Shown here: in pieces, positions 1,464 through 63,358 of the stretch | Position numbering within the stretch: the first letter of the stretch is position 1 | Layout: the number at the start of each line of letters is the position of its first letter | Assembly: GCA_964575305.1 (NCBI GenBank) | Contig: CAZNPG010000005.1 | Coordinates: forward strand, 505 to 64,504 | DNA length: 64,000 nucleotides | Reading direction: 5' to 3' | Origin: an uncultured Gammaproteobacteria bacterium | Lineage (GTDB): Bacteria > Pseudomonadota > Gammaproteobacteria > Magnimaribacterales > TMED112 | Notes under the pieces: model-generated | Databases searched by the model: none | Seen by the model: only the letters and a program-made list of their open reading frames with translations | What the model was told of the DNA's origin: nothing | Translations under genes and position numbers: made by a program

Positions 1464-1469
1464 ATTTAT

Positions 1470-2887: not shown

Positions 2888-2935
2888 TTTTATGTCTTTC
2901 TTAACTGAAGTATTATAATCAATCCTCATTAAGAT

Positions 2936-3412
2936 ATGACACCGAAACAAGAAACAAATTGGCAACTATATAAATCTCAAGAAGATCTGGTAAATCCTCT
3001 TATGGCTAGCTGGGTTGAAGAAAACAACTCATTGATGAAAAGACTCAATGATGAAAAGCAAAAAATTGCTCTTAGAGTAGTCTTTGAAAAAATTTGTTTT
3101 ACCGATGAGCACGAACTGAATCTCACAAATGCAGAAGGCAATCTCCGAAGAATTTTTCTCACCGGGAGCTCTGATATTGTATTTGCCGAATCTTTTTTTA
3201 GTAATGATGTTATTGAGAAATTCAAAAAATTTGGAAGACTTGAAAATGAACCTCTAGGAAAGTTTTTATTCACAGATACCAATATCACGAAACATGAGAC
3301 ATATGTAGCATCCTACCTCATAGGTGACCAGAGCTTCCAAGGACGTAAGTGCATTTATGATTATGCCGGTTCAAAGTTCTCTGTGATAGAAGTATTCTTA
3401 TTTAATGACTAA
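2936..3412 (+). CDS. ubiC: Chorismate pyruvate-lyase
   Basis: Contains SLMKRL, RRIFLTG..VFAES, PLGKFLF and a C-terminal VIEVFL, mirroring E. coli UbiC blocks (SMTKRF, REILL..WLAGRT, PLGRYLF, LTELFL). It lies directly upstream of and overlaps ubiA, as in Gammaproteobacteria. Confidence 0.75.
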   Translation: MTPKQETNWQLYKSQEDLVNPLMASWVEENNSLMKRLNDEKQKIALRVVFEKICFTDEHELNLTNAEGNLRRIFLTGSSDIVFAESFFSNDVIEKFKKFGRLENEPLGKFLFTDTNITKHETYVASYLIGDQSFQGRKCIYDYAGSKFSVIEVFLFND

Positions 3413-5325: not shown

Positions 5326-5728
5326 ATATAAAAAAACTAACCATCACCTTGCTGTTTGCTCTGCTAATTACCTAAGAATAAAAAAACTATTGGCTGCTTT
5401 TTCGAAAAACTCTCTTAAGTTAAGAAATAATGATGAAAAAAAATATTTTAGAGCAGAATTAAACTACTCTGCTGTGTCAAAACATACAGCAGATCTTAGT
5501 CTTCATTTTTCTAACTTAGAATCTAAACTTTTACATACATTTTATTTTGATTGCAATATTTACCATGATGTTGAGCTGATAGAGGTGTCAGCTTTTAATG
5601 GTTATGCACCTAATAAGTTTCCATTTCAATTTGAAAAATATCCGAAATCATCTGATGAAAAATCCCAGCAAAACAGATTTTTTACTGAAGTTCTTGATAT
5701 GATTCTCACAGGCGATTTTTATGAGTAA
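5318..5728 (+). CDS. DUF1249 (YqiB-like) protein
   Basis: I chose the start at the internal Met (MSEYKKTNHH), which overlaps the previous stop by 8 nt. Its position immediately upstream of a yqiA-type esterase reproduces the E. coli yqiB-(cpdA)-yqiA neighbourhood. The call rests mainly on synteny and size. Confidence 0.5.
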   Translation: MSEYKKTNHHLAVCSANYLRIKKLLAAFSKNSLKLRNNDEKKYFRAELNYSAVSKHTADLSLHFSNLESKLLHTFYFDCNIYHDVELIEVSAFNGYAPNKFPFQFEKYPKSSDEKSQQNRFFTEVLDMILTGDFYE

Positions 5729-6407: not shown

Positions 6408-6470
6408 ATCGTTCATCTTTATGTACATAAAGACGGAAGTAGACGAAAGTTGAAGGAACGCGACCGTTAA
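6408..6470 (+). promoter_or_regulatory. Glutamine riboswitch aptamer (glnA RNA motif), copy 1
   Basis: AUCGUUCAUCUUUAUGUACAUAAAGACGGAAGUAGACGAAAGUUGAAGGAACGCGACCGUUAA. The closing helix is CGUUC/GAACG and the internal stem is AUCUUUAUG/CAUAAAGA. The blocks ACGGAAGUAG and GAAGGAACGC are conserved, and there is a small GAAA-capped hairpin. Confidence 0.8.
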
Positions 6471-6483
6471 TCGGATAACGTAA

Positions 6484-6540
6484 ATCGTTCATCTTCGTAT
6501 GAAGACGGAAGTAGGTGAAAGCTGAAGGAACGCGACCGTT
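6484..6540 (+). promoter_or_regulatory. Glutamine riboswitch aptamer (glnA RNA motif), copy 2
   Basis: AUCGUUCAUCUUCGUAUGAAGACGGAAGUAGGUGAAAGCUGAAGGAACGCGACCGUU has the same conserved blocks as copy 1. The stems differ in a pairing-preserving way (AUCUUC/GAAGA; GU-GAAA-GC versus AC-GAAA-GU). It ends 81 nt upstream of the glutamine synthetase start. Confidence 0.8.
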
Positions 6541-6620
6541 AAACCCAGTCGAGTTTAACTTCTATAGTGCTGCAATATAAATGCAAATATATTTTTTTAT
6601 TTTTCTATAGGAGAAAAGAT

Positions 6621-7631
6621 ATGAGTGATATGAAAACGTATGAATACGTCTGGTTAGACGGTTTTAAGCCTGAGCCTTCTCTCAGGAGCAAAGTAAAAGC
6701 AACAGACCTAAGAGGTACTGATAAAAGTGAGGCAAACGATAGCATGCCACCAAAATGGTCTTTTGATGGGTCCTCTACACAACAAGCAGAGGGTGGTAGT
6801 TCAGATTGTCTTTTGATACCAGTTCAAGTATATGAAAACCCTACGAACCCAGATCATTTAGTGATGTGTGAAGTCTTGGCTGCTGATAGTTCTGTTCACC
6901 CATCTAACTCTAGAGCTGCTGCAGCTAAAGTAGCTACAGATGAGTGGTGGTTTGGTTTTGAGCAGGAGTACTTTTTTACTAATCCCGATGGCTCTCCGCT
7001 TGGATGGGAAGATGGTGAACCAAGACCTCAAGGTGATTACTACTGTGGTGTTGGTGCAGATAACGTAGCAGGACGTGAAATATCAGAAATGCATCTGCAA
7101 GCATGTCTTGATGCAGGCATAAATCTCACAGGAACAAATGCAGAAGTAGCTTTAGGCCAATGGGAATATCAATGTTTTGGCAAAGGAATAAAGGCTGGTG
7201 ATGATCTCTGGATGAGTAGGTACTTATTGTACAAAATAGCTGAAGAATATGGCGTTGGCGTAAACATCCACCCAAAACCAAAAAAGGGCGATTGGAATGG
7301 CTCAGGAATGCATGCAAATTTCTCTAATGAAGAAATGAGAACTGCTGGTTCTAAAGAACTTTTCCATGCAATGTGCGATAAATTAGGTGAGGTTCATGAA
7401 GAAGGTATCGCATCGTATGGTTCAGACAATGACCAAAGATTAACAGGCTTGCATGAGACTCAAAAGATTACTGAGTTTTCATATGGTGTTAGTGACAGAG
7501 GAGCTAGTATCAGGATACCTGTGTATACAGTTGAGCATGACTGGAATGGTTATTTAGAAGATAGAAGGCCAGCATCTAATGCAGATCCTTATAAAATTAT
7601 TGCCCACATTGTAGGCACATTAACTAAATAG
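6621..7631 (+). CDS. glnII: Glutamine synthetase type II (eukaryote-like GSII)
   Basis: MSDMKTYEYVWLDG..WSFDGSSTQQAEGGSSDCLL..WWFGFEQEYFF..NAEVALGQWEYQ..HPKP..GDWNGSGMHANFS..RLTG.HET..F..GVSDRGASIRIP; ~336 aa. I chose the start at the ATG at 6621, which is preceded by TAGGAGAAAAGAT. The track's GTG at 6567 would add an implausible leader. Confidence 0.9.
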   Translation: MSDMKTYEYVWLDGFKPEPSLRSKVKATDLRGTDKSEANDSMPPKWSFDGSSTQQAEGGSSDCLLIPVQVYENPTNPDHLVMCEVLAADSSVHPSNSRAAAAKVATDEWWFGFEQEYFFTNPDGSPLGWEDGEPRPQGDYYCGVGADNVAGREISEMHLQACLDAGINLTGTNAEVALGQWEYQCFGKGIKAGDDLWMSRYLLYKIAEEYGVGVNIHPKPKKGDWNGSGMHANFSNEEMRTAGSKELFHAMCDKLGEVHEEGIASYGSDNDQRLTGLHETQKITEFSYGVSDRGASIRIPVYTVEHDWNGYLEDRRPASNADPYKIIAHIVGTLTK

Positions 7632-13146: not shown

Positions 13147-13222
13147 GCCCAGATAGCTCAGTTGGTAGAGCAAAGGACTGAAAATCCTTGTGTCGGTAGT
13201 TCGATTCTACCTCTGGGCACCA
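13147..13222 (+). tRNA. tRNA-Phe (GAA)
   Basis: GCCCAGATAGCTCAGTTGGTAGAGCAAAGGACTGAAAATCCTTGTGTCGGTAGTTCGATTCTACCTCTGGGCACCA folds as a cloverleaf by eye. The anticodon loop is CUGAAAA, CCA is encoded, and it is near-identical in layout to E. coli tRNA-Phe. Confidence 0.97.
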
Positions 13223-14463: not shown

Positions 14464-14739
14464 ATGTTTACAAAAAAGAGTTTTTTACTATTTTTACTAG
14501 CTTTTAGCTTTTCTTCTTTATTGAGCTTAGAGCATCTTAATCATATTGATAGCCATGGTTCAATTGAAACTCATGAACTTGATTGTGAGTATAGTGAAAA
14601 TTCAAAAGCTCCTAAGTTAAATGTAAACGTATTCACCGTTTCTTTTTTTCCTATAGAGATTTTTTACCTTATTAATCTGAATATTCATAACCCTCTATTA
14701 GAAAAGAATTTTAAGAGTAGGGCGCCCCCTCAAAGATAA
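14464..14739 (+). CDS. Hypothetical small exported protein with a His-containing segment
   Basis: Signal-peptide-like N-terminus MFTKKSFLLFLLAFSFSSLLS, then EHLNHIDSHGSIETHELDCEYSE. There is no obvious SD, and no family was recognised. Its position directly upstream of the receptor is the main support. Confidence 0.3.
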   Translation: MFTKKSFLLFLLAFSFSSLLSLEHLNHIDSHGSIETHELDCEYSENSKAPKLNVNVFTVSFFPIEIFYLINLNIHNPLLEKNFKSRAPPQR

Positions 14740-14782
14740 ACGTTCTACCCAACCAAAATTTTAATTTTACAAGGAGGTTTAT

Positions 14783-16972
14783 ATGAAAAATTATTATTTA
14801 GCACTTATGGTGAGTGCACTACTAACACTAAATATTTATGCTGATGATGTTGAAGAAGTTGTCGTGACTTCAGCCCTTACATCTCAGAGTGCTAGTGATC
14901 TAAAAGATCCACTACATGTAGTAGATGGAGATGATGTTGCAACAGGAGGAATTCAATCTCTTGGTGAAACTGTTGATGAGCTTTTAGGTGTACATGCAGC
15001 AGATTTTGGAGCAGCAGTTGGTCAACCTGTTGTAAGAGGTATGTCAGGATCTAGAGTTCGAGTTCTAGAAAATGGCGTTGTTGTTAGAGACGTAGCAGCA
15101 CTTGGCCCAGACCATATTAATGACGTTAATTTATTGAATACTCAACAAATTGAAGTTGTAAAAGGTCCGTCATCTTTGCTTTATGCAAATGGTGGTGCAG
15201 GTGGTGTTATTAACGTTGTTGATAATAGCATTGCAACAACAGATTTTACTAAGCGTACTATAAGCGTTGGAGCAGAGACTCAATCAGTTAATAACGGCGA
15301 AGCAAAAAACTTTAGTTATGAAAACAATGTTTCAGGATTTAATGTAACTTTTGCAGCATCAGATTCATTATTTGAAAATTATGAATTGCCTGGTGGCGCT
15401 CTATATCCAGAAGAACATCATGATGAAGATCATTCTGATAGCGAAGGTGATGAAGAGCATGATGAAGCAAGTCTTAAATTCTTAGAAAATTCTGATGTTG
15501 AAAATACTTATACAAAGTTTGGTGTATCTAGGACAGGTGATTGGGGTTATGTAGGTTTCTCATACTCTGATAATGAAGGAGTAATGGGTGTACCTTTTCA
15601 TGTGGAAGCACATGGAGAGCATGATGATGATCACGCTGAAAGCGAGGATGAACATGATGAACACGAAGGTGAAAGAATTTTTTCTCAAATAGACTCAAAT
15701 AAGTTTGATATAAAAGGTTCTTTTAATACTAACGGCTATTCTCTTGTAAATAAGGTTGATTTTTCTTTTAGAGATAGCAGTTACTCTCATCTTGAGGGTC
15801 ATGCTGAAGAAGAAGGCCATGATGAAGATCATTCTGAAAGTGAGGAAGATGGACATGGTCATGAAGAACCTACACTTTTTGAAACTGATGCAACTGAGTT
15901 TGGTTTAATTTTTGATGTTGGATCTGACGATGTAACAAGAAAAGTTGTTGTTAATATTGCGGAGCAAGATTCTTCAATTATTGGTGAAGAAGCATTCATG
16001 CAACCTGTTTCAACTGAAGAAACAACAATGGGTTATTTCGTTGCAAGAGATTTTGGTTCTTATAGGCTTGACTATGGTTTTAGGTACGATGATATTTCTA
16101 GATCTGGTTCTGTTGCTCATCATGATGAGGATCACGCTGAAGATGAAGAAGGTGAGCTAGAGTATTACAATCAAAATTTAAATACTTTGAGCTATGCCCT
16201 TAATTTTGATCAGGACTTTTCTGAAAATCTTAGCGTTAATTTAGGATTATCAAGCTTTGAAAGAGCACCAGATGTGGTTGAGCTATTTATGAATGGCCCA
16301 CACTTAGCAACTGGAAGGTTTGAAATGGGAAATCCTAATTTAGATACTGAAACATCAAATAATGTAGATATTACTTTCAATTATCAGAAAGATAATATGT
16401 ACGCTACCTTTGCTTACTATCAGAATAGTGTGTCTAACTACATTTATTTGAAAGATGAAGAGCATGATGAAGATCATCATGATAGCGAAGGTGAAGAAGA
16501 GCATGGAGGTTTAATGCATGCTGAATTTGTTCAAGAGGATGCATCTCTAGAAGGTTACGAATTTGAAGTTGGTTCAACTCATCAACTTGCAAACGGAACT
16601 TTAGATCTTTCCTTTGGGAGAGATGTGGTTGAAGGCACACTTGATGCTGGAGGATTTATCCCAAGAATGGCACCTTCTAGAAACTTTTACTCAGCTTCAT
16701 ATTCAGAAAGCGACTATACTTTTTCTGCAGTCCTAAAAGATGTTGCAGATCATGACAATGTTGCTGAAGAAAATGAAACGATGACTGAAGGTTACAAAAT
16801 GTTGAACTTAAAACTTGTTAAAGACTATCAAATTGGCAAAGCAAATCTTAGAGTTGCTGCTTTTGCTAATAATGCACTTGATCAAGTAGCAAGAAACTCA
16901 ACATCTTTTGTTAAAGATGCTGTACCACTTCCAGGCAGGAATGTTGGTTTAAGCATTAGATTAACTTACTAA
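14783..16972 (+). CDS. TonB-dependent outer-membrane receptor with five His/Asp/Glu-rich insertions (ZnuD-like metal receptor candidate)
   Basis: Strong SD (AAGGAGG) and a signal peptide. The plug has GQPVVRGMSGSRVRVLENGVVVRD..GPDH..IEVVKGPSSLLYANGGAGGVINVV, and the C-terminal barrel ends ..GLSIRLTY. Five acidic/His cassettes are described under findings. Confidence 0.9.
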   Translation: MKNYYLALMVSALLTLNIYADDVEEVVVTSALTSQSASDLKDPLHVVDGDDVATGGIQSLGETVDELLGVHAADFGAAVGQPVVRGMSGSRVRVLENGVVVRDVAALGPDHINDVNLLNTQQIEVVKGPSSLLYANGGAGGVINVVDNSIATTDFTKRTISVGAETQSVNNGEAKNFSYENNVSGFNVTFAASDSLFENYELPGGALYPEEHHDEDHSDSEGDEEHDEASLKFLENSDVENTYTKFGVSRTGDWGYVGFSYSDNEGVMGVPFHVEAHGEHDDDHAESEDEHDEHEGERIFSQIDSNKFDIKGSFNTNGYSLVNKVDFSFRDSSYSHLEGHAEEEGHDEDHSESEEDGHGHEEPTLFETDATEFGLIFDVGSDDVTRKVVVNIAEQDSSIIGEEAFMQPVSTEETTMGYFVARDFGSYRLDYGFRYDDISRSGSVAHHDEDHAEDEEGELEYYNQNLNTLSYALNFDQDFSENLSVNLGLSSFERAPDVVELFMNGPHLATGRFEMGNPNLDTETSNNVDITFNYQKDNMYATFAYYQNSVSNYIYLKDEEHDEDHHDSEGEEEHGGLMHAEFVQEDASLEGYEFEVGSTHQLANGTLDLSFGRDVVEGTLDAGGFIPRMAPSRNFYSASYSESDYTFSAVLKDVADHDNVAEENETMTEGYKMLNLKLVKDYQIGKANLRVAAFANNALDQVARNSTSFVKDAVPLPGRNVGLSIRLTY

Positions 16973-16983
16973 TCTTTCTTTAT

Positions 16984-17013
16984 GACAGGGAATGGGTAAA
17001 ACCATTTCCTGTC
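16984..17013. terminator. Bidirectional hairpin between convergent genes
   Basis: GACAGGGAAUGG-GUAAAA-CCAUUUCCUGUC, a perfect 12-bp stem with T-rich flanks on both strands. It sits between the receptor stop (16972) and the convergent hydrolase stop (17013). Confidence 0.6.
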
Positions 17014-24851: not shown

Positions 24852-25339
24852 TTATCTCGTCTCTAGTAGCCATGAATGGCAATAAGCTAATTGGTGTTAA
24901 TAATGATCTGCCTTGGAAGTTAAAAGATGACCTTGAGCACTTTAAAAATTACTCAATGCATAAACCAATCATAATGGGAAGAAATACATATGATTCTATT
25001 GGGAGGCCTCTACCAAATAGAACAAATATCATTGTTTCAAATACACTCAATGAAGTTTCAGGTTGCTATATCTGTAATTCTCTTGATCAAGCAGTTTTAT
25101 TAGGCAAAGAGCACACCAATGATGAGATTATATTAATTGGTGGTGCAAAAATCTTTGAAGAAGGTATGAAAATAATTAATAAGCTTGTCATAAGCTGGGT
25201 AGATGCAGATCATCTTAAAGGAGATGTTTACTTTCCTAATTTTGATATGAATGATTGGGTTGAAGTATCAAGTGATGTTTATCAGAAATCGGATAACAAT
25301 GAATTTTCTTTTAAGATCTCTGAATATATTAAGAAATAG
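24848..25339 (+). CDS. folA: Dihydrofolate reductase
   Basis: [39 protein letters not shown] and [10 protein letters not shown]. It has an ATGA overlap with thyA. Confidence 0.9.
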
Positions 25340-26942
25340 ATTCTTTTCTTAAGTTTAGGTTTCTGACTCTTTCTTGTTCATTATCAGTATATTTTAACCA
25401 TGCTCTAGCAGATTTTTTTACTGAATCTTTTTTACTCTTAGACGCCTGAGTAAAGACTTCTCTTGCTTCATTAAATCTCTGAAGCTCAAACAAAGCTTGA
25501 CCAAGAGTTAGTTGAGCAAAACCTGGATTTTTTAGATCTCCAACTTTTAATCCTTTATTTATAGCCTCAATAGCCTGGTCAATTTGATCCTCTTGGTAAT
25601 AAAGATTACCCATAGCAATGTAAGCCTCTCCGTTATCTGTAACTTTTGTTAGTTTTGCGAAAACTTCTATTGCTGCTTTTCTTTCTTGTGCAGCTCTTAG
25701 AGCTCCAGCTAAAATAGTTAAATTTTGTTTATCTTCTTCAAGCATTGGTTTTGCAGTCTGGTCTAGCGCCATTGCTGTTTTTGGTTTAACAAATGCTGGC
25801 CCCAATATATCTGTACAAACCAGCTCTTCTATTGCTATACCTTCTTTATCAGTTTTGAGATTACCTTTCTCATCTAACACTTTACTCATTAAGCATTCCT
25901 GATCAACAACCCTCAAGCCTGGAACAGTGGTCATGCCAGTAAGCATAACTTCTGCTGCCCAATAAGGATTTCCAGCTGCTAATAACATTTGTGATAAAGA
26001 TTGGAATTCACTCTTTTTATTTAATAATTGTTTTGTATAGGCAGTCTTCAGTAAACTGGTGTAATCTCCTGGTCTCTCCAAGTCGCTGTATAGGCCAGCT
26101 AAATTTACAAAATACTTCTTCTTTGGATAAAGTTCTAAAATTTCTTCATATAATGGCACCTGCTCTTCTTTAAGTTCTAACTCACTCATAGATGCAATTA
26201 ATAGTGAGTACCAATTCTCTCTAAATCTAATATTGTTTTCATCAGCAAGGCGTTTAGCTTGTCTCACATTATTGAAAGCTTTCTTTTTGCTGTTTAATGC
26301 TTTTGATTTTGATTTTTCTTGATCAGCTAAAAGATAATATGCTTGGCCAAGCAGCACATAAGCGTCTGGTTTTACATCAGGAGCATTTTTAAACCATTTA
26401 ATTAGGTAATTAACACCAGCATCAAAGTTAGATTCAGATAAATAGAGTTGTGCTAGCACATAGTATGCTTCAACTCTCAGCTTATCATTGGTATCTTCCT
26501 CATCAACAACCTTCAAATAATTTGAAATAGCTTCTGGAATCTTGTTTTGATAGGCAAGGTTAAAGTAAGACTGGTAATAATAGATCATAGATCTGTCATA
26601 ACTTTTGAGAGAGTCCATTCTTGGCTTTAATTCATCTAATTCTTGCTGTCCTTTTGCTACTGCTCTATTAATTTCGGCATCTTTAGCTTTAGCTTCTTTT
26701 TCTTTTTTCTCTTTTTTGAGTAGTCTCTGCTCTTCTTCGAGGATGCTTGCTTCATCAAGTGCTTCTATAACTCTTTGGACTTTTCTGGCCACAGACGGAG
26801 TCATAACTTTCGCTCTTTTCTTCGTATTAAGTTCTCTTATTCTTTCTTCGGATGCTAATTCTGGAAGACCATAACTTGGTTCAGGAACCTCAGTAATTAA
26901 ATTACAGGAAAATGTTAATAGTATTAATAATAAAATTCTCAT
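25329..26942 (-). CDS. TPR-repeat protein, last gene of the TonB2-type cluster (TtpD-like position)
   Basis: Signal/lipobox LLTFSC and multiple TPR-like A..Y..LGQAY repeats. It is translationally coupled (1-nt overlap) to tonB. Confidence 0.65.
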   Translation of the reverse strand: MRILLLILLTFSCNLITEVPEPSYGLPELASEERIRELNTKKRAKVMTPSVARKVQRVIEALDEASILEEEQRLLKKEKKEKEAKAKDAEINRAVAKGQQELDELKPRMDSLKSYDRSMIYYYQSYFNLAYQNKIPEAISNYLKVVDEEDTNDKLRVEAYYVLAQLYLSESNFDAGVNYLIKWFKNAPDVKPDAYVLLGQAYYLLADQEKSKSKALNSKKKAFNNVRQAKRLADENNIRFRENWYSLLIASMSELELKEEQVPLYEEILELYPKKKYFVNLAGLYSDLERPGDYTSLLKTAYTKQLLNKKSEFQSLSQMLLAAGNPYWAAEVMLTGMTTVPGLRVVDQECLMSKVLDEKGNLKTDKEGIAIEELVCTDILGPAFVKPKTAMALDQTAKPMLEEDKQNLTILAGALRAAQERKAAIEVFAKLTKVTDNGEAYIAMGNLYYQEDQIDQAIEAINKGLKVGDLKNPGFAQLTLGQALFELQRFNEAREVFTQASKSKKDSVKKSARAWLKYTDNEQERVRNLNLRKESIS

Positions 26943-27577
26943 TAGCTGTCTTGCTCCAATTCAAATGAAAATTTATGAGGCACATCTGCAACAGCAACTG
27001 CTCTACCATCTCTTACAGTTGGCTTATATTTAAGCTTTGCTGCAGCTCTTAATGTTGCTGAGTTAAACATTGAACATGTATTAAATTCGCCCTCTCTATT
27101 AGCTGCAGATCTACATTTTCCTTCCATAACATATGGTTCTTCTATTGTTCCAGATTCTGTAATAGTGAAGGCAACAATTACATAACCTTCCATATTTCTT
27201 TCTTTTGCTCTTCTAGGATAGATTGGCTGAACTTTAAATAGTGGAATATAGTCTCCATCCCTAAATAGTGCGCCTGTGCCTTGTGAGAAATTTATATCTG
27301 GCTTTGATGCTTGAGCTGCCACTGCAATAGGAGTTACATCTAATTGTGGTGGAGCTATATCAGGTGGTGCAATTTCTGGTTCTTCAGGTGGCTCTACCTC
27401 TTCTGAGGTGATAGTTTCAATTTCTCTATCTGGCATGATGACATCACCAATTTTTCTGCCTTTTACAACATCACCTGAATCACCAGTACTGACTAGTAAT
27501 ACCATAAATATAAACAACAAAAAGGCCACTAATGGTGCCATAGCAACAAATGTGTATCTTTTTGTATCAGCCGTCAT
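26942..27577 (-). CDS. tonB: Energy transducer TonB
   Basis: N-terminal anchor, a Pro/Glu-rich spacer EEVEPPEEPEIAPPDIAPPQ, and a C-terminal domain YPRRAKERNMEGYVIVAFTITESGTI..KYKP. Confidence 0.8.
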   Translation of the reverse strand: MTADTKRYTFVAMAPLVAFLLFIFMVLLVSTGDSGDVVKGRKIGDVIMPDREIETITSEEVEPPEEPEIAPPDIAPPQLDVTPIAVAAQASKPDINFSQGTGALFRDGDYIPLFKVQPIYPRRAKERNMEGYVIVAFTITESGTIEEPYVMEGKCRSAANREGEFNTCSMFNSATLRAAAKLKYKPTVRDGRAVAVADVPHKFSFELEQDS

Positions 27578-27579
27578 AT

Positions 27580-27990
27580 TTAATTTGGTTCTGCTGCAAG
27601 GGAAATATCAAAAACTCCTGCGTCTCTAGCACCATCCATAACTTGAATGATTGCATCTGCACTAGCAGTCTCATCAGCCTGTATAACCACAGTTCCTTGA
27701 GGATTGTCTGCTAGCAGCTTAAGAACATTAGCTTTTACCTGCCTTACATCAATTCTTCTTCCGTCCATATAAATTTCGTCATTTCCACCAACAGCAATTA
27801 GAATGGCTGCGTTTTCTTGGATTTCCGATGTATCAGAATCTGGTCTATTTACTTCCAGTCCAGGTTCTTTAATAAAGTTAGCTGTAACAATAAAGAAAAT
27901 AAGCATGATGAAAACAACATCAAGCATTGGTGTTAAATTTATTTCGCTTTCTTCTTCTCTTGCTGCAGATGATATTGCGTTTCTTCTCAT
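27580..27990 (-). CDS. exbD: Biopolymer transport protein ExbD/TolR
   Basis: INLTPMLDVVFIMLIFFIV and a periplasmic domain ..VVIQADETASADAIIQVMDGARDAG. Confidence 0.9.
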   Translation of the reverse strand: MRRNAISSAAREEESEINLTPMLDVVFIMLIFFIVTANFIKEPGLEVNRPDSDTSEIQENAAILIAVGGNDEIYMDGRRIDVRQVKANVLKLLADNPQGTVVIQADETASADAIIQVMDGARDAGVFDISLAAEPN

Positions 27991-28532
27991 TTCTTCACTC
28001 CTTTTTTACTATGTCCTGAAACATATTCTCCCATTAATAGTTCATTAGTTTCAACTTGGTTTTTAACCCAAATCATTGCTAAGACTCCAGATAGCGCAGA
28101 GACCATGCCTGCCATAGTCGGCAACGTAGCTTTTGACACTCCACCAGCCATTGATCGTGCATCTCCTCCACCATTGAAAGCCATGACTTGAAAGACCTCA
28201 ATCATTCCAGTTACAGTTCCCATTAGTCCAAATAGAGGGCATAAAGCTATACATACCTGTATAAGCTGAATGTTTCTATTAATTGCTATTCTGCCTTCAG
28301 AGATCAATCTACCTTTTGTCATATTTTTATGCCATGGTGTAGGAAAGTTCATGCCCAAGTATCTTTTGTTGATTCCTTTTGCAACTTCCTCATGGACAAA
28401 TAGAAAATAATATATCCTTTCAAAAATAAGGGCCCACATAAAGGTGACCAGTAAGGCTATGTACCATAAAACTGGGCCACCTGACTCCATAAAGTCACGG
28501 AGGGCTATGTAGAGCTCAGTAAGCCAGATCAT
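27987..28532 (-). CDS. exbB: MotA/TolQ/ExbB proton-channel protein
   Basis: 181 aa with three TM segments, containing LCPLFGLMGTVTGMI.VF and ATLPTMAGMVSAL. Confidence 0.85.
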   Translation of the reverse strand: MIWLTELYIALRDFMESGGPVLWYIALLVTFMWALIFERIYYFLFVHEEVAKGINKRYLGMNFPTPWHKNMTKGRLISEGRIAINRNIQLIQVCIALCPLFGLMGTVTGMIEVFQVMAFNGGGDARSMAGGVSKATLPTMAGMVSALSGVLAMIWVKNQVETNELLMGEYVSGHSKKGVKK

Positions 28533-28534
28533 AT

Positions 28535-29911
28535 TTATTTAGCTTTTTCAGCAACAATACCTGTAGCTTGTTCTTCAAGAACATCAACCACTGATCTTGC
28601 AGATGATTGCAAGAATGAATGTGCTAATGTTGTTGGTATAGCAACAACCAAACCTAATACTGTTGTAACAAGTGCTTGTGAAATACCGCCAGCCATAATT
28701 TTTGGATCACCAGTACCAAACAAAGTAATTTGTTGGAAGGTAACAATCATACCTGTTACTGTACCTAATAGTCCTGCTAGCGGAGCTACCACTGATACAA
28801 TTTTCACGAAACTTATACCTCTTTCAATTGAAGGTCTTTCAGCCATAATTGCTTCAGCAAGCTTAAGCTCAAGCCTATCAATTGTTTCTTTCATATGTGA
28901 GGCACCAACTTTTAAAACTCTGCCCAATGGGTTATTTGAATTTGGAGTAGAAGAAGCAAGTTGAGCTTGAACTTCTCTGCCCATTAGCCAAAGCATTACA
29001 TATTTATAAATTGCATATATTAGAGTTATTGCACCAATTGCCAGGATGATATAACCGATTATTCCACCTTGGTTGATTCTCTCAAGTAGAGAAGGGTTTT
29101 GCACAAGGTTTGCTAATAAAGCTCCACCTGATGGTCCGCTTGGGTCTACAGAAAAGCTTACGTAACCACTTGAAACATCTGCATTTGAAACTCTTCCAGC
29201 TGAACTTGTATAACGTCCCGCAGGCTGTCTAGCTAAGAATTGATACTGTCCTTTTGTCGGAACATACTCAAGGTAACTATTACCACAAACTGCATTATAA
29301 ACACCGACCCTTACTACATCACACTCAGTTTGCGTACCATCAACATTAATAACAGTTGCGGAGAAACGGCTTACCTCACCAGTAGCCTTCATTTCACGCA
29401 TAATTTCATACCAAACTCTTTCAATCTCTTCTATAGTTGGAAGCTCAGTTGACTCTCCCATCTTTTTAGTAAGGTCTCCTAGGAATGTTTCTCTTTCCTT
29501 GCCAAATTCTGCTGCAGTTAGAGAAGATTCAAATGTAACCCTTGAATCAGTACTAATACTTTGCATGTGTCCAAAAAGCTCATTTAGCGAACCAAGTTGC
29601 TTGAGGTATGCTTCCTCAGCAATTCTAAGCTTCTCTTGATTCTTAACAAATTCAGCTTCTAATTGGTCTGCAATTCTTTCTTGTCTAGCTAGCTCTCTTT
29701 GTTCTGCCTTGAGGATTTGGTCTTGCTTATCTCTGGCAGCTTTAAATTCAGCTTCTCTTTTCTTATTCTCACCCTGCTCTTGTGATTTACCTTCTTTGAC
29801 AAGCTCTAAAAGCTTATCAAGATTGCTTGGAGCTTGAACTTCAGATTCTTGTGCAAAAGCGTAGCCTGAACTTATCAAAAACGTCAAAAAGATAATTTTT
29901 AAATATTTCAT
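28535..29911 (-). CDS. Large MotA/TolQ/ExbB-family protein with a long periplasmic N-domain (TtpC-like)
   Basis: 458 aa with a signal peptide, a coiled-coil N-domain, and a C-terminal channel block APLAGLLGTVTGMI.TF..ISQALVTTVLGLVVAIP. Confidence 0.8.
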   Translation of the reverse strand: MKYLKIIFLTFLISSGYAFAQESEVQAPSNLDKLLELVKEGKSQEQGENKKREAEFKAARDKQDQILKAEQRELARQERIADQLEAEFVKNQEKLRIAEEAYLKQLGSLNELFGHMQSISTDSRVTFESSLTAAEFGKERETFLGDLTKKMGESTELPTIEEIERVWYEIMREMKATGEVSRFSATVINVDGTQTECDVVRVGVYNAVCGNSYLEYVPTKGQYQFLARQPAGRYTSSAGRVSNADVSSGYVSFSVDPSGPSGGALLANLVQNPSLLERINQGGIIGYIILAIGAITLIYAIYKYVMLWLMGREVQAQLASSTPNSNNPLGRVLKVGASHMKETIDRLELKLAEAIMAERPSIERGISFVKIVSVVAPLAGLLGTVTGMIVTFQQITLFGTGDPKIMAGGISQALVTTVLGLVVAIPTTLAHSFLQSSARSVVDVLEEQATGIVAEKAK

Positions 29912-30660
29912 TATTCGCCCTCCACAAATTTAACAGGAACAGCAAGTAAATCTAATGGTGCTGTTTTGTTAGCCATTCTGATACCATCTCTTACAGGTAA
30001 TCTATAACCACTAACTTCTACCCATTCGCCAGCTTCTGCATCCCAGACTCCTGCTTCGCTTTGATCTTTTAATTGATACATTAAAGCTAGTCTTCCTATT
30101 CTTAAGATGTTCACAACTTTTTCTTCTCCACCCAAGACAATAGCGTCCTCATAGGTTTCGATTGTTCTGCCATATTCTCTTTCAATGTTATAAGCTTCAA
30201 GAACCTGTCTCACTTGCTCTGATGCTGTTACTTTAGGGTCTGAAAGTGTATTTCTAACTTGATTGATTCTCTTATATCTCTCATCAAGAGAAAATGGAGC
30301 ATCAAGCGAAACAAACTGTTCTAGGCTATTAGCCATTCTTTCCATCAAAGGCGGTATCTGTCTTTGAATAACTACAACTTGTCTTGTTTGTTCAGCTAAA
30401 GTTACAAGTCTATCTTCTTGTGCTTGTATCTGCTTTCTTTTTTGTGCATTGTAGATTTTTAGACCTTCTACTTGCTTTACGACTACCTTCCACTCGGCTA
30501 AGAGGGAATCTTTTTCAGTTGACAATCCATCAACTTTTTCTTGAGACTTTTCAGATAGAGAGATGCTTTCTTCGTTTTCCTCTAAGATCTGATCTATATC
30601 AGCATTATCCGCAAATGCGAACACTGCTAATAGGGATAAAATATATACGTATTTTTTCAT
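29911..30660 (-). CDS. DUF3450 periplasmic coiled-coil protein (TtpB-like), first gene of the TonB2-type cluster
   Basis: Signal peptide, a coiled coil, and a C-terminal ..ILRIGRLALMYQ..D....G.WD. It has a 1-nt overlap with the next gene. Confidence 0.7.
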   Translation of the reverse strand: MKKYVYILSLLAVFAFADNADIDQILEENEESISLSEKSQEKVDGLSTEKDSLLAEWKVVVKQVEGLKIYNAQKRKQIQAQEDRLVTLAEQTRQVVVIQRQIPPLMERMANSLEQFVSLDAPFSLDERYKRINQVRNTLSDPKVTASEQVRQVLEAYNIEREYGRTIETYEDAIVLGGEEKVVNILRIGRLALMYQLKDQSEAGVWDAEAGEWVEVSGYRLPVRDGIRMANKTAPLDLLAVPVKFVEGE

Positions 30661-58337: not shown

Positions 58338-59149
58338 TAAAGTTGGTAGTTTGGGTTAATAATTACTTTATATTCCGCCTTAACACTATCTATATAATCT
58401 GCCAGCCGTTGTTCTTCTTCTTGTATAGCAAAATCTTGTCTTACCAAAACCTCAATAGCTTCGAATTTAGGCAGATAGCCTACTTTTTTATTGTTGATGT
58501 AGAGTAAATGTTTCCCATAACTAGATGAGTATGGGCCAGCCCATTTATTTAGTGTTGGATTTTCAAATGCATTTAAAAACCCTTTTCCAAAAGCTTGTTC
58601 AACCTGATCTAAACTATAATCACTAAAGTTTTTACCCAAGAAAAAGGGTTCAGCCTCTATTTTTGCATCCAGGCTGTTTAAGCTTTTTAAAGCAACCAAG
58701 GCTTTGGCTTCAGCATCCGGTGATTGTGCGAAATAGTAGTGCGTAAATGAATAAGTAGTTGGTACAAAATATTTGTTGCTGTTTGCTTCATAGAAAGCAA
58801 TTAATTGGTTAACTTTTGGTTCTTCTCGGTTGGTCTCTTGTTTCAGAAATGAGATTTTTTGGGCCAATCTCCTTTTTATAATTCTATCGTTTTGGTCTAG
58901 GCCGAGCCTAAGTGCTTCACGATATAGAATCTCTTCCTCAATATAATCGTTAACTATATTAAAAATTTCTTGTTCGTTGGGTGGTCTGCCAACTCGTGAG
59001 TCCCACGCAGCAAAAAGCCCGTCTAATTCCTGATCTGATACATAAATATCTTTAGTTTCTTCATCGTAATTCATAGAGATATCTAAAAAATAAATAACGA
59101 AGCCCAACAATAAGAATAAGATTATTCTTGAGTATGGTTTCAGGCTCAT
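58337..59149 (-). CDS. Membrane-anchored parvulin-like (Rotamase_2-type) PPIase/chaperone-like protein
   Basis: N-terminal TM helix, then EEILYREALRLGLDQNDRIIKRRLAQK and a C-terminal ..WAGPYSSSYGKHLLYI. The start makes an ATGA overlap with the DUF3604 stop. Confidence 0.55.
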   Translation of the reverse strand: MSLKPYSRIILFLLLGFVIYFLDISMNYDEETKDIYVSDQELDGLFAAWDSRVGRPPNEQEIFNIVNDYIEEEILYREALRLGLDQNDRIIKRRLAQKISFLKQETNREEPKVNQLIAFYEANSNKYFVPTTYSFTHYYFAQSPDAEAKALVALKSLNSLDAKIEAEPFFLGKNFSDYSLDQVEQAFGKGFLNAFENPTLNKWAGPYSSSYGKHLLYINNKKVGYLPKFEAIEVLVRQDFAIQEEEQRLADYIDSVKAEYKVIINPNYQL

Positions 59150-61230
59150 AGAGCGAATATGTCTATATCTTGCGGCACTGGTACATACCAAATTGGCGAT
59201 GACCAGGCTCGTTCTTGAATTGTTTTATGTAGGTCTGATCTTGGTTCTTCTCCTGCTTTAATAGCATCCCATGTTGACCACCTGCAAGTTGGATTCTCAA
59301 GAACCCTGACATAATAGAAAGCCTTGTTTTCTGGATTAAATTCTGGATCCTTCCATATTTTTTTAAGCTCTGTAGCTCCAACGTTATTAGTAATAGAACA
59401 ATCCTCTATATTTACCCTCGCACCATTATCAGGGCAGCGGTGTGTTGTTGGGTCAACCTCCAAACCATCAGAACAAACAACATCAAATACTTTTTCACTT
59501 GGCCTTGCGTTGCCGCTGTCTATTGAGCCTTTAATAATCTGGACTCTTTGTAGTGATGCTGAGTGTTTGTCTTTTTGTGCCCAAACTATAAACTCTGGAA
59601 CTTTTGCCCCATCGGCAAATAAGTCTGCCCCCATAGGCACACCGTTTTTATAAGCCTCATCGACCAAGGCTTCAGAGTTTATATCTATTGAGCTCAAATT
59701 ATAGCCAGAGAAAAATCGGACTGTGATCCTAGGTCCTGTGGTCGCAAAAGCTTCTTTTCTTCGGAGTGCTGAAAATATAGATTCTCTCGTATTTTCTTCT
59801 GCCCAGACTGCTGCTAAACCTGAAGATCCCCATTGGTCAAATCCAATAGCATAATTCTTGCCATCAACCTCACGAAAAGTCCTAGGCTGATTGTAATATT
59901 CTGAATATTGTATTAACTGTTCAGTCCTTTCTTCCGATAGAGATACGCTGCCTCTGCTTACAGCACTGCCATCTACTACTCCAACTTTTGACCAGAAATT
60001 GCTTTCATCGAATGATCCTGCTCCTAAGTGTGTGTCTGTAGATCCAATCAAACCGAATTTATATGGGTTACCTTGGCCTTTCCACTCCAACATCAATCCT
60101 CTTAAGTATGCATCCCTAACATAGCCCCCATGATGGTAACTATAGGTTGGTGGTCTTGCTCCCACTCTGCCATCCATAATTTCAAAGTCGGCCCATTCAT
60201 CATCAGGCGATAATAACGGGTGGGTATCTGATGTGCCTTTAACCTGAGTCATTTCGACAATAGGCTCATTGCGCATACGTCTTTCAGAATATGCCAAATC
60301 AATTGGTGTGCCATAGTAGGTTTCAACCTCAAACATCTCTCCATTTGACCCGTTACTGTTATGAGGAATTGCTATAGAGTCCAAGCCTTTTGCTCTTAAC
60401 TTGTCCATCCATGCCCATAGGTCCATAGGGTTTAAAGAGTCTTCTCGAGAAAATGGTCTTTCCGGTGCTTTAGAAGATTCAAAGATTACATTTCTATGTA
60501 AGTTGCCACCCTCAACGTCTGTACCAGATGTGTACTCATATCCAATAAAGGTAGTAAATTTGCCTGGATCATTATTTTCCTCAGCAGCTTTAGCAATGTC
60601 TGACCAAGCTGACTTATGCACTTCATAGTCAAATGCTTGAGAACCAACAGATCTATTTTTAGTAAAAATTGCTTGTAATATTTTTGGGTGCCACAGAGGG
60701 TATTGTCTATCTAAATAACCGTCTGCTGCCATCAAGCTAAAAAGATTTAGTCTTTCTGGCATAGAGTCAATCGTACGATTTTCCTCTCTATTAATATTTA
60801 CAAATGGTTTGGCCCATTCAGTGTTGGCTTGTTTAGAATTTGGATCTCCGTATTCTTGAATCATGCCCATAAAAATTGCGTGATCGGTAACAGCATAAAA
60901 ATCTAGAGGTTCTTTCAATTGCATTTCATAGCCTAGAGGGTGTTTGATCATTTGACCTTTAGCGTATCTATAGGCATCGTACGGAGTAGCATTTACTCCG
61001 AAAACATAAGCATCAAAAGAATATCTTGTGTGAACGTGCAGATCACCAAAATACGGATTTTTAAGTGGGTTTGGTGGAACATCGTTTACTTTGTTAGCTG
61101 TTTCTTCAATTGCATGGTCCACAATGTTGAGAGATACATCTTTTTGTAAAAGTTTATATGCTCCTGTGAAGTAAATTATATTGAGTGCCAGAATTACAAT
61201 TAACGCTACTGAAGTTTTAGATGTTTTCAT
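59146..61230 (-). CDS. DUF3604 protein (PHP-like metal-dependent hydrolase fold candidate), exported
   Basis: N-terminal signal/anchor, YFGDLHVHTRYSFDAY, then DHAIFMG and HNSNGSNG; 694 aa. Confidence 0.65.
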   Translation of the reverse strand: MKTSKTSVALIVILALNIIYFTGAYKLLQKDVSLNIVDHAIEETANKVNDVPPNPLKNPYFGDLHVHTRYSFDAYVFGVNATPYDAYRYAKGQMIKHPLGYEMQLKEPLDFYAVTDHAIFMGMIQEYGDPNSKQANTEWAKPFVNINREENRTIDSMPERLNLFSLMAADGYLDRQYPLWHPKILQAIFTKNRSVGSQAFDYEVHKSAWSDIAKAAEENNDPGKFTTFIGYEYTSGTDVEGGNLHRNVIFESSKAPERPFSREDSLNPMDLWAWMDKLRAKGLDSIAIPHNSNGSNGEMFEVETYYGTPIDLAYSERRMRNEPIVEMTQVKGTSDTHPLLSPDDEWADFEIMDGRVGARPPTYSYHHGGYVRDAYLRGLMLEWKGQGNPYKFGLIGSTDTHLGAGSFDESNFWSKVGVVDGSAVSRGSVSLSEERTEQLIQYSEYYNQPRTFREVDGKNYAIGFDQWGSSGLAAVWAEENTRESIFSALRRKEAFATTGPRITVRFFSGYNLSSIDINSEALVDEAYKNGVPMGADLFADGAKVPEFIVWAQKDKHSASLQRVQIIKGSIDSGNARPSEKVFDVVCSDGLEVDPTTHRCPDNGARVNIEDCSITNNVGATELKKIWKDPEFNPENKAFYYVRVLENPTCRWSTWDAIKAGEEPRSDLHKTIQERAWSSPIWYVPVPQDIDIFAL

Positions 61231-61318
61231 TTATTCCCCTTTAAATGTACCGTTAATTTTAACCTATTTTTTAAAACTAGAATCAAATAAAAGGTAAGAC
61301 ATTAAGTGAAATAATAAA

Positions 61319-62419
61319 CTAGAAGCTTTTTTTGTAACCAACTACTATTTGGTATTTGGTGTCCATTTGAAGGTTATATTTTTCTTGGATCACGGGAAAC
61401 AATACTTCTACACCAAGCATATCATTGCCATTAGCAAACAAATCAAGATTGTAATTAGCTCCAAAACCGACATGTAATTCGCTGCCGCCATAGTTTTCAG
61501 GGTTGGCAGTTTGCACTGGTGCTGTGATCATAGCGTTTGCTCCAGAAACCTCGCCTTGGTTGGTAAGTTTTAATCTTGTTGAAATCGATAAATTTGGTAG
61601 ATACTGATATTGTAACCAGGAATTAAGTTCTATTTGATCACCAAATGCCCAGCCTTTTTCATGAATTACTTTTTTGAATCTGGCCTGATTAGACCAAGTT
61701 GTTTTGTCTTTAATTTTTTTTGAATTCGTTAGCCCTAAAGTCAATCTGGTGGCTTTATCACTTGATTGCATGGCATAAGGCAAAATCATATTCATATAAG
61801 TGCCCATTGGTGTGAGAACCTGATCTTTATCATTGTTTTTACCAATAGATTTTTGATATGAAACTTCTCCATGCCACTTTGAATCACCTGTCTCTGATAG
61901 AACAAAGAATGCGCTCAATGTTATATCAGAAAGATCGCTTGAACTTGTATTAAATTGACCAATTAGATCTCTATCCATCATCGCTGAATAGCTATTTAAA
62001 GCCATATCCTTTGAGAGATAAGTGCACATCACCATATAAGTAATGTCTTGGGTTGGGGCATACATTGCTTCAACCATAGTCATCTGCATATCCATGTTCT
62101 TTGGAATAACTGATAAGTTTGCAGGCATGCTGCTAATTTCATTTGGAATTTGTAGTATCTCAGAGTTTGAAATACTGTTTCCATCAAGGGAGTTGCCACT
62201 CATATACATGTGGCCTTGTTTAATACCTAACATCCATCCCATATGATGCATGTTGCCAACCACTCCAATTGGCGCTGATGAATGATTGCCAGAATGAGCC
62301 ATGTGGTCCATGTGATCCATGTGGTCTTCTTTGTGCATATCATGCTTCATGCCATCTTGCTCTTGGCAAGAAAAAACAAAAGCAGATAACATTAAAGTTG
62401 TTAGAAATAAGTTTTTCAT
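61319..62419 (-). CDS. Outer-membrane beta-barrel protein with an N-terminal His/Met-rich segment (lipobox)
   Basis: LSAFVFSC, then DGMKHDMHKEDHMDHMDHMAHSGNHSS..GNMHHMGWM..GHMYMSGN. Alternating beta-strand patterns follow, and the C-terminus ends ..VVGYKKSF (aromatic). Confidence 0.55.
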   Translation of the reverse strand: MKNLFLTTLMLSAFVFSCQEQDGMKHDMHKEDHMDHMDHMAHSGNHSSAPIGVVGNMHHMGWMLGIKQGHMYMSGNSLDGNSISNSEILQIPNEISSMPANLSVIPKNMDMQMTMVEAMYAPTQDITYMVMCTYLSKDMALNSYSAMMDRDLIGQFNTSSSDLSDITLSAFFVLSETGDSKWHGEVSYQKSIGKNNDKDQVLTPMGTYMNMILPYAMQSSDKATRLTLGLTNSKKIKDKTTWSNQARFKKVIHEKGWAFGDQIELNSWLQYQYLPNLSISTRLKLTNQGEVSGANAMITAPVQTANPENYGGSELHVGFGANYNLDLFANGNDMLGVEVLFPVIQEKYNLQMDTKYQIVVGYKKSF

Positions 62420-62949
62420 TTGGGTTTAAAAAATAACACAATTCCTGTTATTGCTGTAAACAATGCAATAAAAGAAAATACTTTTAATAAGATATTGTCG
62501 ATATTGTCTCTTTCAACCCAATCCATAATATGAAACCCCCACATTAGATCCCAAATCCTCCATTGTTGTGATCGAATAGCAACAATTTCTCCTGTATATG
62601 GGTTTTGATAAATATTTAATTCTTCTCCATCTGTGTTTTCAGCCAAAACCTTATAAAGAGGCAGGTCTCTGCCCCGATATTCGGACCCTTTTTTTGGCTC
62701 CTCTACCAACTCAATTGTTATTGGTTTAAGAACCGTTCGTTGTGTGATGATTTCAAAAACACTTTCTTGGGATAGTTTTTCTTGAATAGCTGGCTTAACA
62801 ATTACTGCGGCTTTTTCAGTTTTGTAGTATTGCTCTCCTCTTACATTTTCAATTTTATTAAATGAGAAGTAGATTCCAGAAACAGTCCACAACAGGAGCT
62901 GTAGTGAAACAACAAGACTAATGTATTTGTGTAGTTTTCTTAGGTTCAT
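62416..62949 (-). CDS. PepSY-domain membrane protein
   Basis: MNLRKLHKYISLVVSLQLLLWTVSGIYFSF (a PepSY-associated TM helix), a central PepSY-like domain, and a second C-terminal TM segment. It has an ATGA overlap with the downstream gene. Confidence 0.6.
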   Translation of the reverse strand: MNLRKLHKYISLVVSLQLLLWTVSGIYFSFNKIENVRGEQYYKTEKAAVIVKPAIQEKLSQESVFEIITQRTVLKPITIELVEEPKKGSEYRGRDLPLYKVLAENTDGEELNIYQNPYTGEIVAIRSQQWRIWDLMWGFHIMDWVERDNIDNILLKVFSFIALFTAITGIVLFFKPK

Positions 62950-62956
62950 GTTCTAG

Positions 62957-63358
62957 TTAATCGTGGCAAGAATCACACTCAAGCGCTTTACATGCTTGGT
63001 GGTTTCTATAGTGGGCAAAGATAACAATTAATGAGCCAGCTACAGTAAGGGTTTTTTCTAGTGTCTCGCCTAAAACTGCCTCACCTAGATAATAAGCTGT
63101 GCTTAAAACAGATAAACCACATAAGCCTATGATAAATATGAATAACTCTTTATGGTTTTTAAGTCCTTGTATTAATGCATAAACACTAACAGGGACAGCA
63201 AGCAATAAAATAATAAAATGTAAGAATTCATTATCAATCGAAAACGAGAGGAACCCGGAAGTAAGAATTAAAAAAGAGGGCATAAACAAGCAGTGCAATG
63301 CACATAGCAGTGATAAAGATCCGGCTAATTTGTCTGTAGTTTCTTGTGTTTTAATCAT
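62957..63358 (-). CDS. MerC-domain membrane protein with a Cys/His-rich C-terminus
   Basis: GSLSLLCALHCLFMPSFL (the CxxHC motif in TM1), four TM segments, and a tail HYRNHQACKALECDSCHD. Confidence 0.65.
   Translation of the reverse strand: MIKTQETTDKLAGSLSLLCALHCLFMPSFLILTSGFLSFSIDNEFLHFIILLLAVPVSVYALIQGLKNHKELFIFIIGLCGLSVLSTAYYLGEAVLGETLEKTLTVAGSLIVIFAHYRNHQACKALECDSCHD

Follow-up and report, generated by a model that had tools for sequence, protein, structure and literature searches.

The open reading frame (ORF) at 14783..16972 on the forward strand of the window, i.e., the 64,000-nucleotide (nt) stretch of contig CAZNPG010000005.1 (assembly GCA_964575305.1, from an uncultured gammaproteobacterium of the TMED112 lineage) that was analysed here, very probably encodes a TonB-dependent outer-membrane receptor of the ZnuD type that carries five extracellular loops rich in His, Asp and Glu. 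Directly upstream lies a conserved ORF for a small leader peptide which, judged by sequence features, resembles the CruR/DUF2946 arrest peptides and which was absent from an earlier account of this DNA, a sequence-only reading that had drawn attention to the five His/Asp/Glu segments (here called cassettes). The leader-transporter locus is a candidate scavenging system for zinc (or copper) at the trace levels found in the ocean. The transporter gene and its surroundings are as follows.

14783..16972 (+): TonB-dependent transporter of the ZnuD type, 729 amino acids (Pfam, NCBIfam, PDB, fold comparison and AlphaFold2 model)
Parts of the protein: signal peptide, residues 1-20; TonB box, about residues 23-29; plug, about residues 39-150; barrel of 22 strands, residues 159-728
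16984..17013 (+): terminator-like hairpin 3' of the transporter gene, which ends a two-gene unit of leader and transporter

The proposal that the protein is a TonB-dependent receptor resembling ZnuD is borne out alike by Pfam, NCBIfam, PDB, profile and fold comparisons. Pfam finds the plug (PF07715, E 8.5e-16) and the barrel (PF00593, E 1.2e-20), and inspection of the translation adds a signal peptide (MKNYYLALMVSALLTLNIYA, followed by DD), a TonB box (EEVVVTS) and a C-terminus with an aromatic end (...RLTY). Among NCBIfam models ZnuD scored highest with 203.9 bits and the next family reached 86 bits; in the comparison with ZnuD, OprC and other receptors that had been suggested as a check, the copper model gave 59.4 bits and haem 85.8. 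ZnuD was also the best match in a sequence search of the PDB (E 4e-33), and a profile built from 143 family members matched it with E 1.5e-166, followed by PhuR with 1e-45. The AlphaFold2 (AF2) model, built from the 143-sequence alignment, has a mean predicted local distance difference test score (pLDDT) of 87.2, a predicted template modelling score of 0.88 and 22 barrel strands; the periplasmic-side turns are 2-8 residues long and the long, odd-numbered connections are on the opposite side. With this model Foldseek ranked ZnuD first (E 2e-43, TM 0.76-0.90) and OprC second (3e-31). The protein has no Cys. The source organism is a SAR86 bacterium: the closest relative of the transporter in a genome locus is from SAR86 MED-G166 (94% identity), hundreds of near-identical copies are found in marine metagenomes, and the G+C content of the window is 35%. 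The gene 3' of the transporter is a convergent hydrolase gene.

Three other memberships were considered and rejected. For OprC/NosA (TIGR01778) the cut-off is 472 bits and the score 59.4, the protein lacks Cys, and the fold match is 3e-31 as opposed to 2e-43 for ZnuD. For CrtA (BfrG), which belongs to a family defined as copper-chelate receptors (PMC12914433), a probable CrtA structure (9rvq, 732 amino acids, two entries) aligns over the plug only (E 4.4e-5), and the next gene is the convergent hydrolase. For the haem receptors (TIGR01785/01786) both scores are far under the cut-offs.

The buried zinc site of ZnuD consists of Asp-99, His-100 and Glu-340 together with His-499 (PMC4557270). After correction for the numbering of the PDB chain, which is offset by 14 residues, the alignment gives the following equivalents.

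15110..15115 (+): Asp110-His111 in the apical loop of the plug (GPDH), equivalent to Asp-99/His-100 of ZnuD
15794-15796 (+): Glu338 at the start of cassette 3, equivalent to Glu-340 of ZnuD
16301..16303 (+): His507 in the L7 loop (FERAP...NGPH...NPNL), equivalent to His-499 of ZnuD

By this alignment all four ZnuD zinc ligands appear to be present, as D110, H111, E338 and H507, and each of them is kept in 142 of 143 family sequences. The ZnuD-like plug with its GPDH block, which had been recognised from the sequence alone, thus contains the aligned pair D110/H111. As E338 is found within the first residues of cassette 3, this cassette is in part a conserved inner-site motif (Y334-x-H-x-E338). 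The same region bears on the possibility that the protein is a receptor for haem or another chelate and not for an ion. A FRAP/NPNL-like box (FERAP...H507...NPNL) together with a plug His is found in haem receptors too, and haem families are the next-best matches among hidden Markov models (HMMs) and PDB entries. Nevertheless, the scores against TIGR01785/01786 are 85.8 bits where 316.85 is required and 80.9 bits where 323.75 is required, the profile matches PhuR with 1e-45 and ZnuD with 1.5e-166, ZnuD has the same two-His clamp yet binds no haem (PMC4557270), and both acidic ligands of the zinc site (Asp and Glu) are kept in 142 of 143 family sequences. A haem or chelate receptor is therefore highly improbable.

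The five cassettes are all in frame within the ORF, as the sequence-only reading had them. For the fifth the location was right, but 16454..16504 encodes DEEHDEDHHDSEGEEEH and the last GG of the segment as quoted reaches 16510.

15410..15466 (+): cassette 1, EEHHDEDHSDSEGDEEHDE, residues 210-228, in extracellular loop L2 (residues 198-238), pLDDT about 52-54
15599..15673 (+): cassette 2, HVEAHGEHDDDHAESEDEHDEHEGE, residues 273-297, in loop L3 (residues 270-298)
15788..15868 (+): cassette 3, HLEGHAEEEGHDEDHSESEEDGHGHEE, residues 336-362, at the end of strand 7 and in loop L4 (residues 341-363)
16118..16156 (+): cassette 4, HHDEDHAEDEEGE, residues 446-458, in loop L6 (residues 447-457)
16454..16510 (+): cassette 5, DEEHDEDHHDSEGEEEHGG, residues 558-576, in loop L8 (residues 559-577)

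Together the cassettes comprise 103 residues, 23 His, 20 Asp and 37 Glu (78% His/Asp/Glu) with neither Lys nor Arg, and they are also free of Met. They hold 23 of the 30 histidines of the transporter (hypergeometric p = 2.6e-15), and of the 88 remaining stop-free stretches in the window that reach 100 amino acids just 2 have a comparable His/Asp/Glu run. In the AF2 model all five are extracellular, in L2, L3, L4, L6 and L8. The objection that they might be located in periplasmic turns or in the plug, for which AlphaFold modelling had been named as the check, therefore falls away; the loops are indeed extracellular as had been suggested, but they are not strictly successive. The pLDDT of the cassettes is low (44-66, in L6 up to 72-85), as would be expected for flexible loops. 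Cassette 2 aligns with cluster 1 of ZnuD L3 (HSHEYDDCHAD), which binds cadmium in the crystal (PMC4557270), and cassette 4 aligns with the loop-6 region of ZnuD; the placement of these two cassettes is thereby tied to experiment. It is correct that ZnuD has only one such loop, as its clusters are confined to L3 (PMC4557270, PMC2895646).

The number of cassettes varies widely in the family. Among 133 full-length representatives of 50%-identity clusters, 30, 32, 37, 23, 6 and 5 have zero, one, two, three, four and five cassettes, respectively, and all five loops are filled in 3. L3 is occupied in 98 of these representatives, L2 in 58, L8 in 21, L6 in 18 and L4 in 17, and the occupancy is largely nested, with L3 alone, then L2 and L3, and then further additions. 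Of 79 full-length relatives from marine metagenomes, five cassettes are present in 52, four in 23 and three in 4; the metagenome loci counted here and below are phylogenetically related, and their numbers do not stand for independent events. SAR86, SAR92, Porticoccaceae and Halieaceae share the five-loop layout, with receptors that are 39-50% identical to the one in the window and often have much longer cassettes. Five such loops, which had been thought unusual, are so in the wider family (3 of 133 representatives) but are the usual state in this marine clade of oligotrophic Gammaproteobacteria (52 of 79 loci).

Each loop retains its own anchors down to 39% identity, such as ...HDEHEGERI in L3, TEQHAEEE...EGPT in L4 and DETEEEHEEH...DHGGL in L8, which suggests that the cassettes are old, orthologous loops and not recent insertions. 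The description of the cassettes as inserted in the barrel is not upheld for this reason, and cassette 3 moreover holds the ligand E338. Near-identical DNA is present in three cassettes as had been reported: the shared motif is exact at 15419, 15818 and 16463 and has 3 mismatches at 15620, all within cassettes, with none expected from shuffles. Cassettes 1 and 5 are 89% identical across 53 nt, and 13 of 13 synonymous codons are identical between them (7.4 expected, p = 3.6e-4), including the minor codons AGC and GAG, in a test that takes the codon usage of the window into account. A duplication of DNA for all cassettes was rejected, as the pairs other than 1 and 5 are no more alike than peptide similarity and codon bias would lead one to expect. 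Within this gene the earlier suggestion of cassette duplication is therefore supported for cassettes 1 and 5 only. Relatives show exchange between loops: in the transporter of the SAR92 locus L015 the same 60 nt, four tandem 15-nt units GATCATGCAGATGAA that encode DHADE repeats, are found in L4 and L6, which shows slippage as well as exchange between loops, and two SAR86 genes have 37 identical nt (L2/L6) and 34 identical nt (L2/L4). In these sequences exchange between loops or parallel unit expansion appears clear. Across 17 proteins the sharing of 4-mers is 0.167 between loops of one protein and 0.134 between different loops of different proteins, and the former value was matched by 0 of 2000 permutations. 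Cassette duplication is thus an occasional, recurrent process that acts on pre-existing loops.

The same data could be taken to mean that the loops are fast-evolving surface decoration, which serves evasion of phages or grazers or results from low-complexity expansion, and that only the buried site takes part in transport. In a comparison of 120 close relatives, the cassettes and their flanks hold 29 of the 41 indel positions, tandem 15-nt units have expanded and loops have exchanged in relatives, and the cassette number ranges from 0 to 5 across the family. On the other hand the composition is tightly constrained (78% His/Asp/Glu, no Lys or Arg), the substitution variability in the 120 close relatives is not raised in cassettes (0.074 vs. 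0.096), each loop retains its anchor motifs at 39-50% identity, and the equivalent L3 clusters of ZnuD bind metal in crystals (PMC4557270). Mere decoration is accordingly considered improbable.

The leader upstream of the transporter has the following elements.

14464..14739 (+): leader ORF, 91 amino acids, CruR/DUF2946-like, conserved
14542-14544 (+): invariant His27
14584-14586 (+): invariant Cys41, in a CxxS motif (CEYS) in the window and in CxxC in most relatives
14719..14730 (+): codons AGG GCG CCC CCT for Arg-Ala-Pro-Pro (RAPP; R86-A87-P88-P89), a putative arrest site 2 codons before the stop
14740..14782 (+): spacer of 43 nt between leader and transporter, with the Shine-Dalgarno sequence AAGGAGG at 14771-14777

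In Bordetella pertussis, CruR is an exported leader in which RAPP arrests the ribosome and a CxxC motif 45 residues upstream senses copper; copper relieves the arrest, and this results in Rho-dependent termination ahead of the transporter gene (PMC9426467). CruR answers to copper and little to zinc or iron, and such leaders head copper operons (PMC9426467). That RAPP causes arrest has been shown by experiment (PMC9426467, PMC10951233, PMC12992588), arrest at the CruR-type motif was obtained in vitro, and RAPP leaders before TonB-dependent receptors are a recognised class (PMC12992588). The leader described here is kept in about 30 genome loci and is found directly before the transporter in 67 of the 67 related marine metagenome loci that extend at least 400 nt upstream. 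By inspection its N-terminus is hydrophobic and resembles an export signal. In RAPP the A and both P are invariant and R is at least 90% conserved (alignment A2), the motif ends 2-5 residues before the stop in relatives, and the spacing from Cys to RAPP is 41 residues in the window and 40-44 in relatives. Public assemblies annotate the leader as a gene without a Pfam domain. The ORF in the window has no match to PF11162 or any other Pfam domain, and 52 of 52 database relatives are "hypothetical" and without a Pfam domain; among 19 leader members, 3 match DUF2946 (E 0.004) and 1 matches DUF2607 (2e-5).

The spacer between leader and transporter is mostly 37-46 nt in 67 non-redundant junctions. 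As it is this short, the Rho-dependent mechanism of CruR may be replaced by control of translation initiation of the transporter. The minimum-energy fold pairs the Shine-Dalgarno sequence with the Ala-Pro-Pro codons in 38 of the 67 junctions. Selection for a hairpin that hides the Shine-Dalgarno sequence was nevertheless rejected: synonymously recoded junctions pair as often (36 ± 2 compared to the 38 observed), and there is therefore no evidence of codon selection for the hairpin. The junction in the window folds no better than shuffles (z = -0.76). A riboswitch or other known RNA upstream of the transporter was also rejected, as Rfam gave none nearby.

The gene neighbourhoods of relatives point to two metals. 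In the Halieaceae loci L020 and L022 (about 370-5700) five-cassette receptors without a leader adjoin a zinc cluster with a MerC-like gene, ZrgA, DUF3299, an ATP-binding cassette (ABC) ATPase, an FtsX/MacB permease and a COG0523 GTPase. A palindrome, ATGATACATTGTATCAT, is found only in these two loci, between COG0523 and the transporter (perfect at 5842 of L022 and with 3 mismatches at 5810 of L020). A leaderless relative in Opitutaceae has COG0523 and a Fur-family regulator nearby, and a leaderless relative in Pseudohongiella has a ZIP transporter nearby. Within 10 kb of the transporter in the window no zinc genes were found. The zinc contexts are all in leaderless loci, and the leader-bearing loci have copper genes or uninformative neighbours; it may therefore be that both metals are served by the family, with regulation that differs between them.

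In 13 related loci a MerC-like membrane protein of 130-150 amino acids with the motifs CxxHC and CxxxxCxCH is encoded directly 3' of the transporter on the same strand (L073 3808-4233, L103 5336-5752, L087, L112 and 9 more), and it may move the metal across the inner membrane in those loci. The MerC-like copy of the window (62957..63358, -) is 45 kb from the transporter and not in its operon. Several other SAR86 lineages encode, 3' of the cassette receptor or of its MerC-like gene, a second TonB-dependent receptor that is larger (about 860 amino acids), in the following loci.

L007: 8316-10886
L009: 8282-10855
L019: 8169-10793
L073, L103 and L109: also with the second receptor

Zinc emerges from this analysis as the leading candidate for the metal, with a probability close to even; copper is a tentative choice and any other metal an unlikely one. 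Zinc is favoured by the homology to ZnuD with its conserved site, by a cassette chemistry of His and carboxylate free of Met and Cys, and by the zinc genes near leaderless relatives. The proposed mechanism is as follows. The substrate would be a divalent transition metal, either free or weakly bound, and most likely Zn2+. The five flexible, acidic and His-rich loops (L2, L3, L4, L6, and L8) around the mouth of the barrel would provide low-affinity capture and raise the local metal concentration. A "fishing-net" role was proposed for loop 3 of ZnuD (PMC4557270), and here this role would be widened to five loops that act as a polyvalent antenna. The loops would pass the ion to the buried site formed by D110/H111 of the plug, E338 and H507, TonB would then open the plug, and the ion would enter the periplasm. 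Expression of the transporter would probably be set by the upstream 91-residue leader, in a direction and by a mechanism that we infer: the nascent chain would stall the ribosome at RAPP, so that the transporter is expressed, and metal bound to the His/Cys motif of the leader would free the stall and turn expression off. The whole package, a Zn2+ importer with five capture loops and a leader switch, is about evenly poised between being right and being wrong. It may further be speculated, as a rather unlikely extension, that the leader would be the first zinc-responsive RAPP arrest peptide, from a subfamily with a His and Cys sensor that is not recognised by Pfam, that it would replace Zur in streamlined oligotrophs such as SAR86, and that it would control a receptor with five exchange-homogenised loops serving as a polyvalent antenna for picomolar metal.

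Several observations weigh against a zinc importer of the ZnuD type. Sites made of histidine and carboxylate are at least as good at binding Cu(II) as at binding Zn(II). The score of 203.9 bits against the NCBIfam ZnuD model (NF038289) is under its cut-off of 950, and the loop conformations of the AF2 model are of low confidence (pLDDT 44-66). No palindrome that could be a Zur or Fur operator was conserved across the orthologous regions upstream of the leader. The leader in the window has CxxS where the CruR-type motif is CxxC. In a SAR86 sublineage the leader-transporter pair is found directly 3' of ctaA-ctaB-SCO1/SenC (L014, 3067-5556, and the six metagenome loci L076, L077, L101, L105, L115, and L121). 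These are genes for cytochrome oxidase biogenesis and a copper chaperone, and the synteny hints at copper. CopA-CopB is located upstream in the relative L018 and an HMA protein is encoded upstream in L016. Finally, the only characterised leader of the RAPP/CruR kind answers to copper and not to zinc (PMC9426467).

With less than even probability, the same architecture and capture would serve Cu2+ or a weak Cu chelate destined for haem-copper oxidases, with a copper-sensing CruR-type leader that turns the gene off. A leader with CruR/DUF2946 features is present in every locus of the marine clade, and CruR is copper-responsive and of a kind that heads copper operons (PMC9426467). The ctaA-ctaB-SCO1 genes before L014 and six metagenome loci, CopA-CopB before L018, the HMA protein in L016, the rank of OprC as second-best structural match, and the Cys/His-rich MerC-like protein 3' of the transporter in 13 loci would fit as well. 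However, the transporter is without Cys, which makes a Cys/Met/His site of the OprC type impossible, and it scores 59 bits against the TonB-copper model with its cut-off of 472. It is not CrtA either, as its similarity to the probable CrtA structure 9rvq is limited to the plug and there is no PepSY_TM gene 3' of the transporter gene, and the cassettes lack Met. Close five-cassette relatives in Halieaceae are found within zinc clusters, the SCO1 synteny probably arose once, in one lineage, and a DUF2946 protein is not confined to copper operons but also heads the Zn/Cd/Co efflux operon czrCBA of Caulobacter (PMC4176598).

Elsewhere in the window four further features were noted. A TonB2-type energising system is encoded by a cluster on the reverse strand, at a distance of 8 kb from the transporter. 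A second reverse-strand cluster may be a separate copper-type system; in its 366-residue protein, which has no Pfam match, the N-terminal part bears a motif rich in Met and His (KHDMHKEDHMDHMDHMAH) and the C-terminus is like that of an outer-membrane protein.

6408..6536 (+): pair of glutamine riboswitch aptamers in tandem (64 and 66 bits), 5' of a short glutamine-synthetase-like gene at 6567..7631
13147..13219 (+): tRNA gene between a prolyl-oligopeptidase-like gene and an oxidoreductase gene, upstream of the locus
25329..30660 (-): TonB2-type cluster with DUF3450, two MotA/ExbB-family proteins (458 and 181 amino acids), ExbD, TonB and a TPR protein
59146..63358 (-): genes for the MerC-like, PepSY_TM, 366-residue and DUF3604 proteins

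SAR86 bacteria are among the most abundant heterotrophs in the surface waters of the ocean, where free zinc and copper are picomolar or lower. As the transporter gene is common in marine metagenomes and has a clear, testable design, it is a possible molecular marker of zinc or copper stress in ocean transcriptomes and proteomes. The natural series from 0 to 5 cassettes is suited for asking whether flexible His/carboxylate loops improve capture at trace levels, and the leader would extend metal-sensing leaders of the RAPP type to a third class of TonB-dependent transporter.

The closest known system is ZnuD of Neisseria meningitidis (PDB 4RDR, 4RDT, 4RVW), likewise a 22-strand TonB-dependent transporter, with which the four buried ligands and a flexible His/Asp/Glu-rich L3 at the aligned position are shared. 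The two proteins are nevertheless only about 20% identical and the NF038289 cut-off is not reached. The metal clusters of ZnuD are confined to an L3 of 77 residues with a Cys pair that joins two clusters, whereas L3 here has 29 residues and no Cys, and cassettes are also present in L2, L4, L6, and L8. ZnuD is Zur-regulated while here no Zur box was found upstream and a RAPP leader precedes the gene, and ZnuD is from host-associated bacteria while the present transporter is from a free-living marine oligotroph. The CruR operons (cruR-crtA(bfrG)-PepSY_TM in B. pertussis and the cruR homolog before oprC in Pseudomonas aeruginosa) similarly have a leader as first gene before a TonB-dependent transporter, and their leader is also small and exported with a Cys motif about 41-45 residues from a C-terminal RAPP. 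They differ in that the transporter here is neither of the CrtA nor of the OprC type and has no PepSY_TM partner 3', in that the leader belongs to a divergent subfamily mostly undetected by Pfam, with an extra invariant His and with CxxS in the window, and in the spacer, which is about 42 nt here and 162 nt for CruR. Environmental TonB-dependent zinc scavenging is also carried out by ZnuK, ZnuL and ZnuM of Caulobacter and by PA0781 of Pseudomonas, a ZnuD homolog; as described in the respective papers these receptors have Zur boxes, and no His/Asp/Glu cassettes in multiple loops are described for them (PMC4176598, PMC4542158). ZnuA, PA4063 and ZIP likewise have disordered loops rich in His, Asp and Glu, by which zinc is captured or buffered beside a site of higher affinity, but those proteins are soluble and periplasmic or located in the inner membrane and have one or two such loops, in contrast to the five on an outer-membrane barrel here. 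Literature searches gave no description of five-loop cassettes or of a CruR-like leader for this ZnuD-type family or for SAR86. The locus is a ZnuD-family receptor in which the known L3 feature has been multiplied across five loops, and which is combined with a divergent CruR-like leader.

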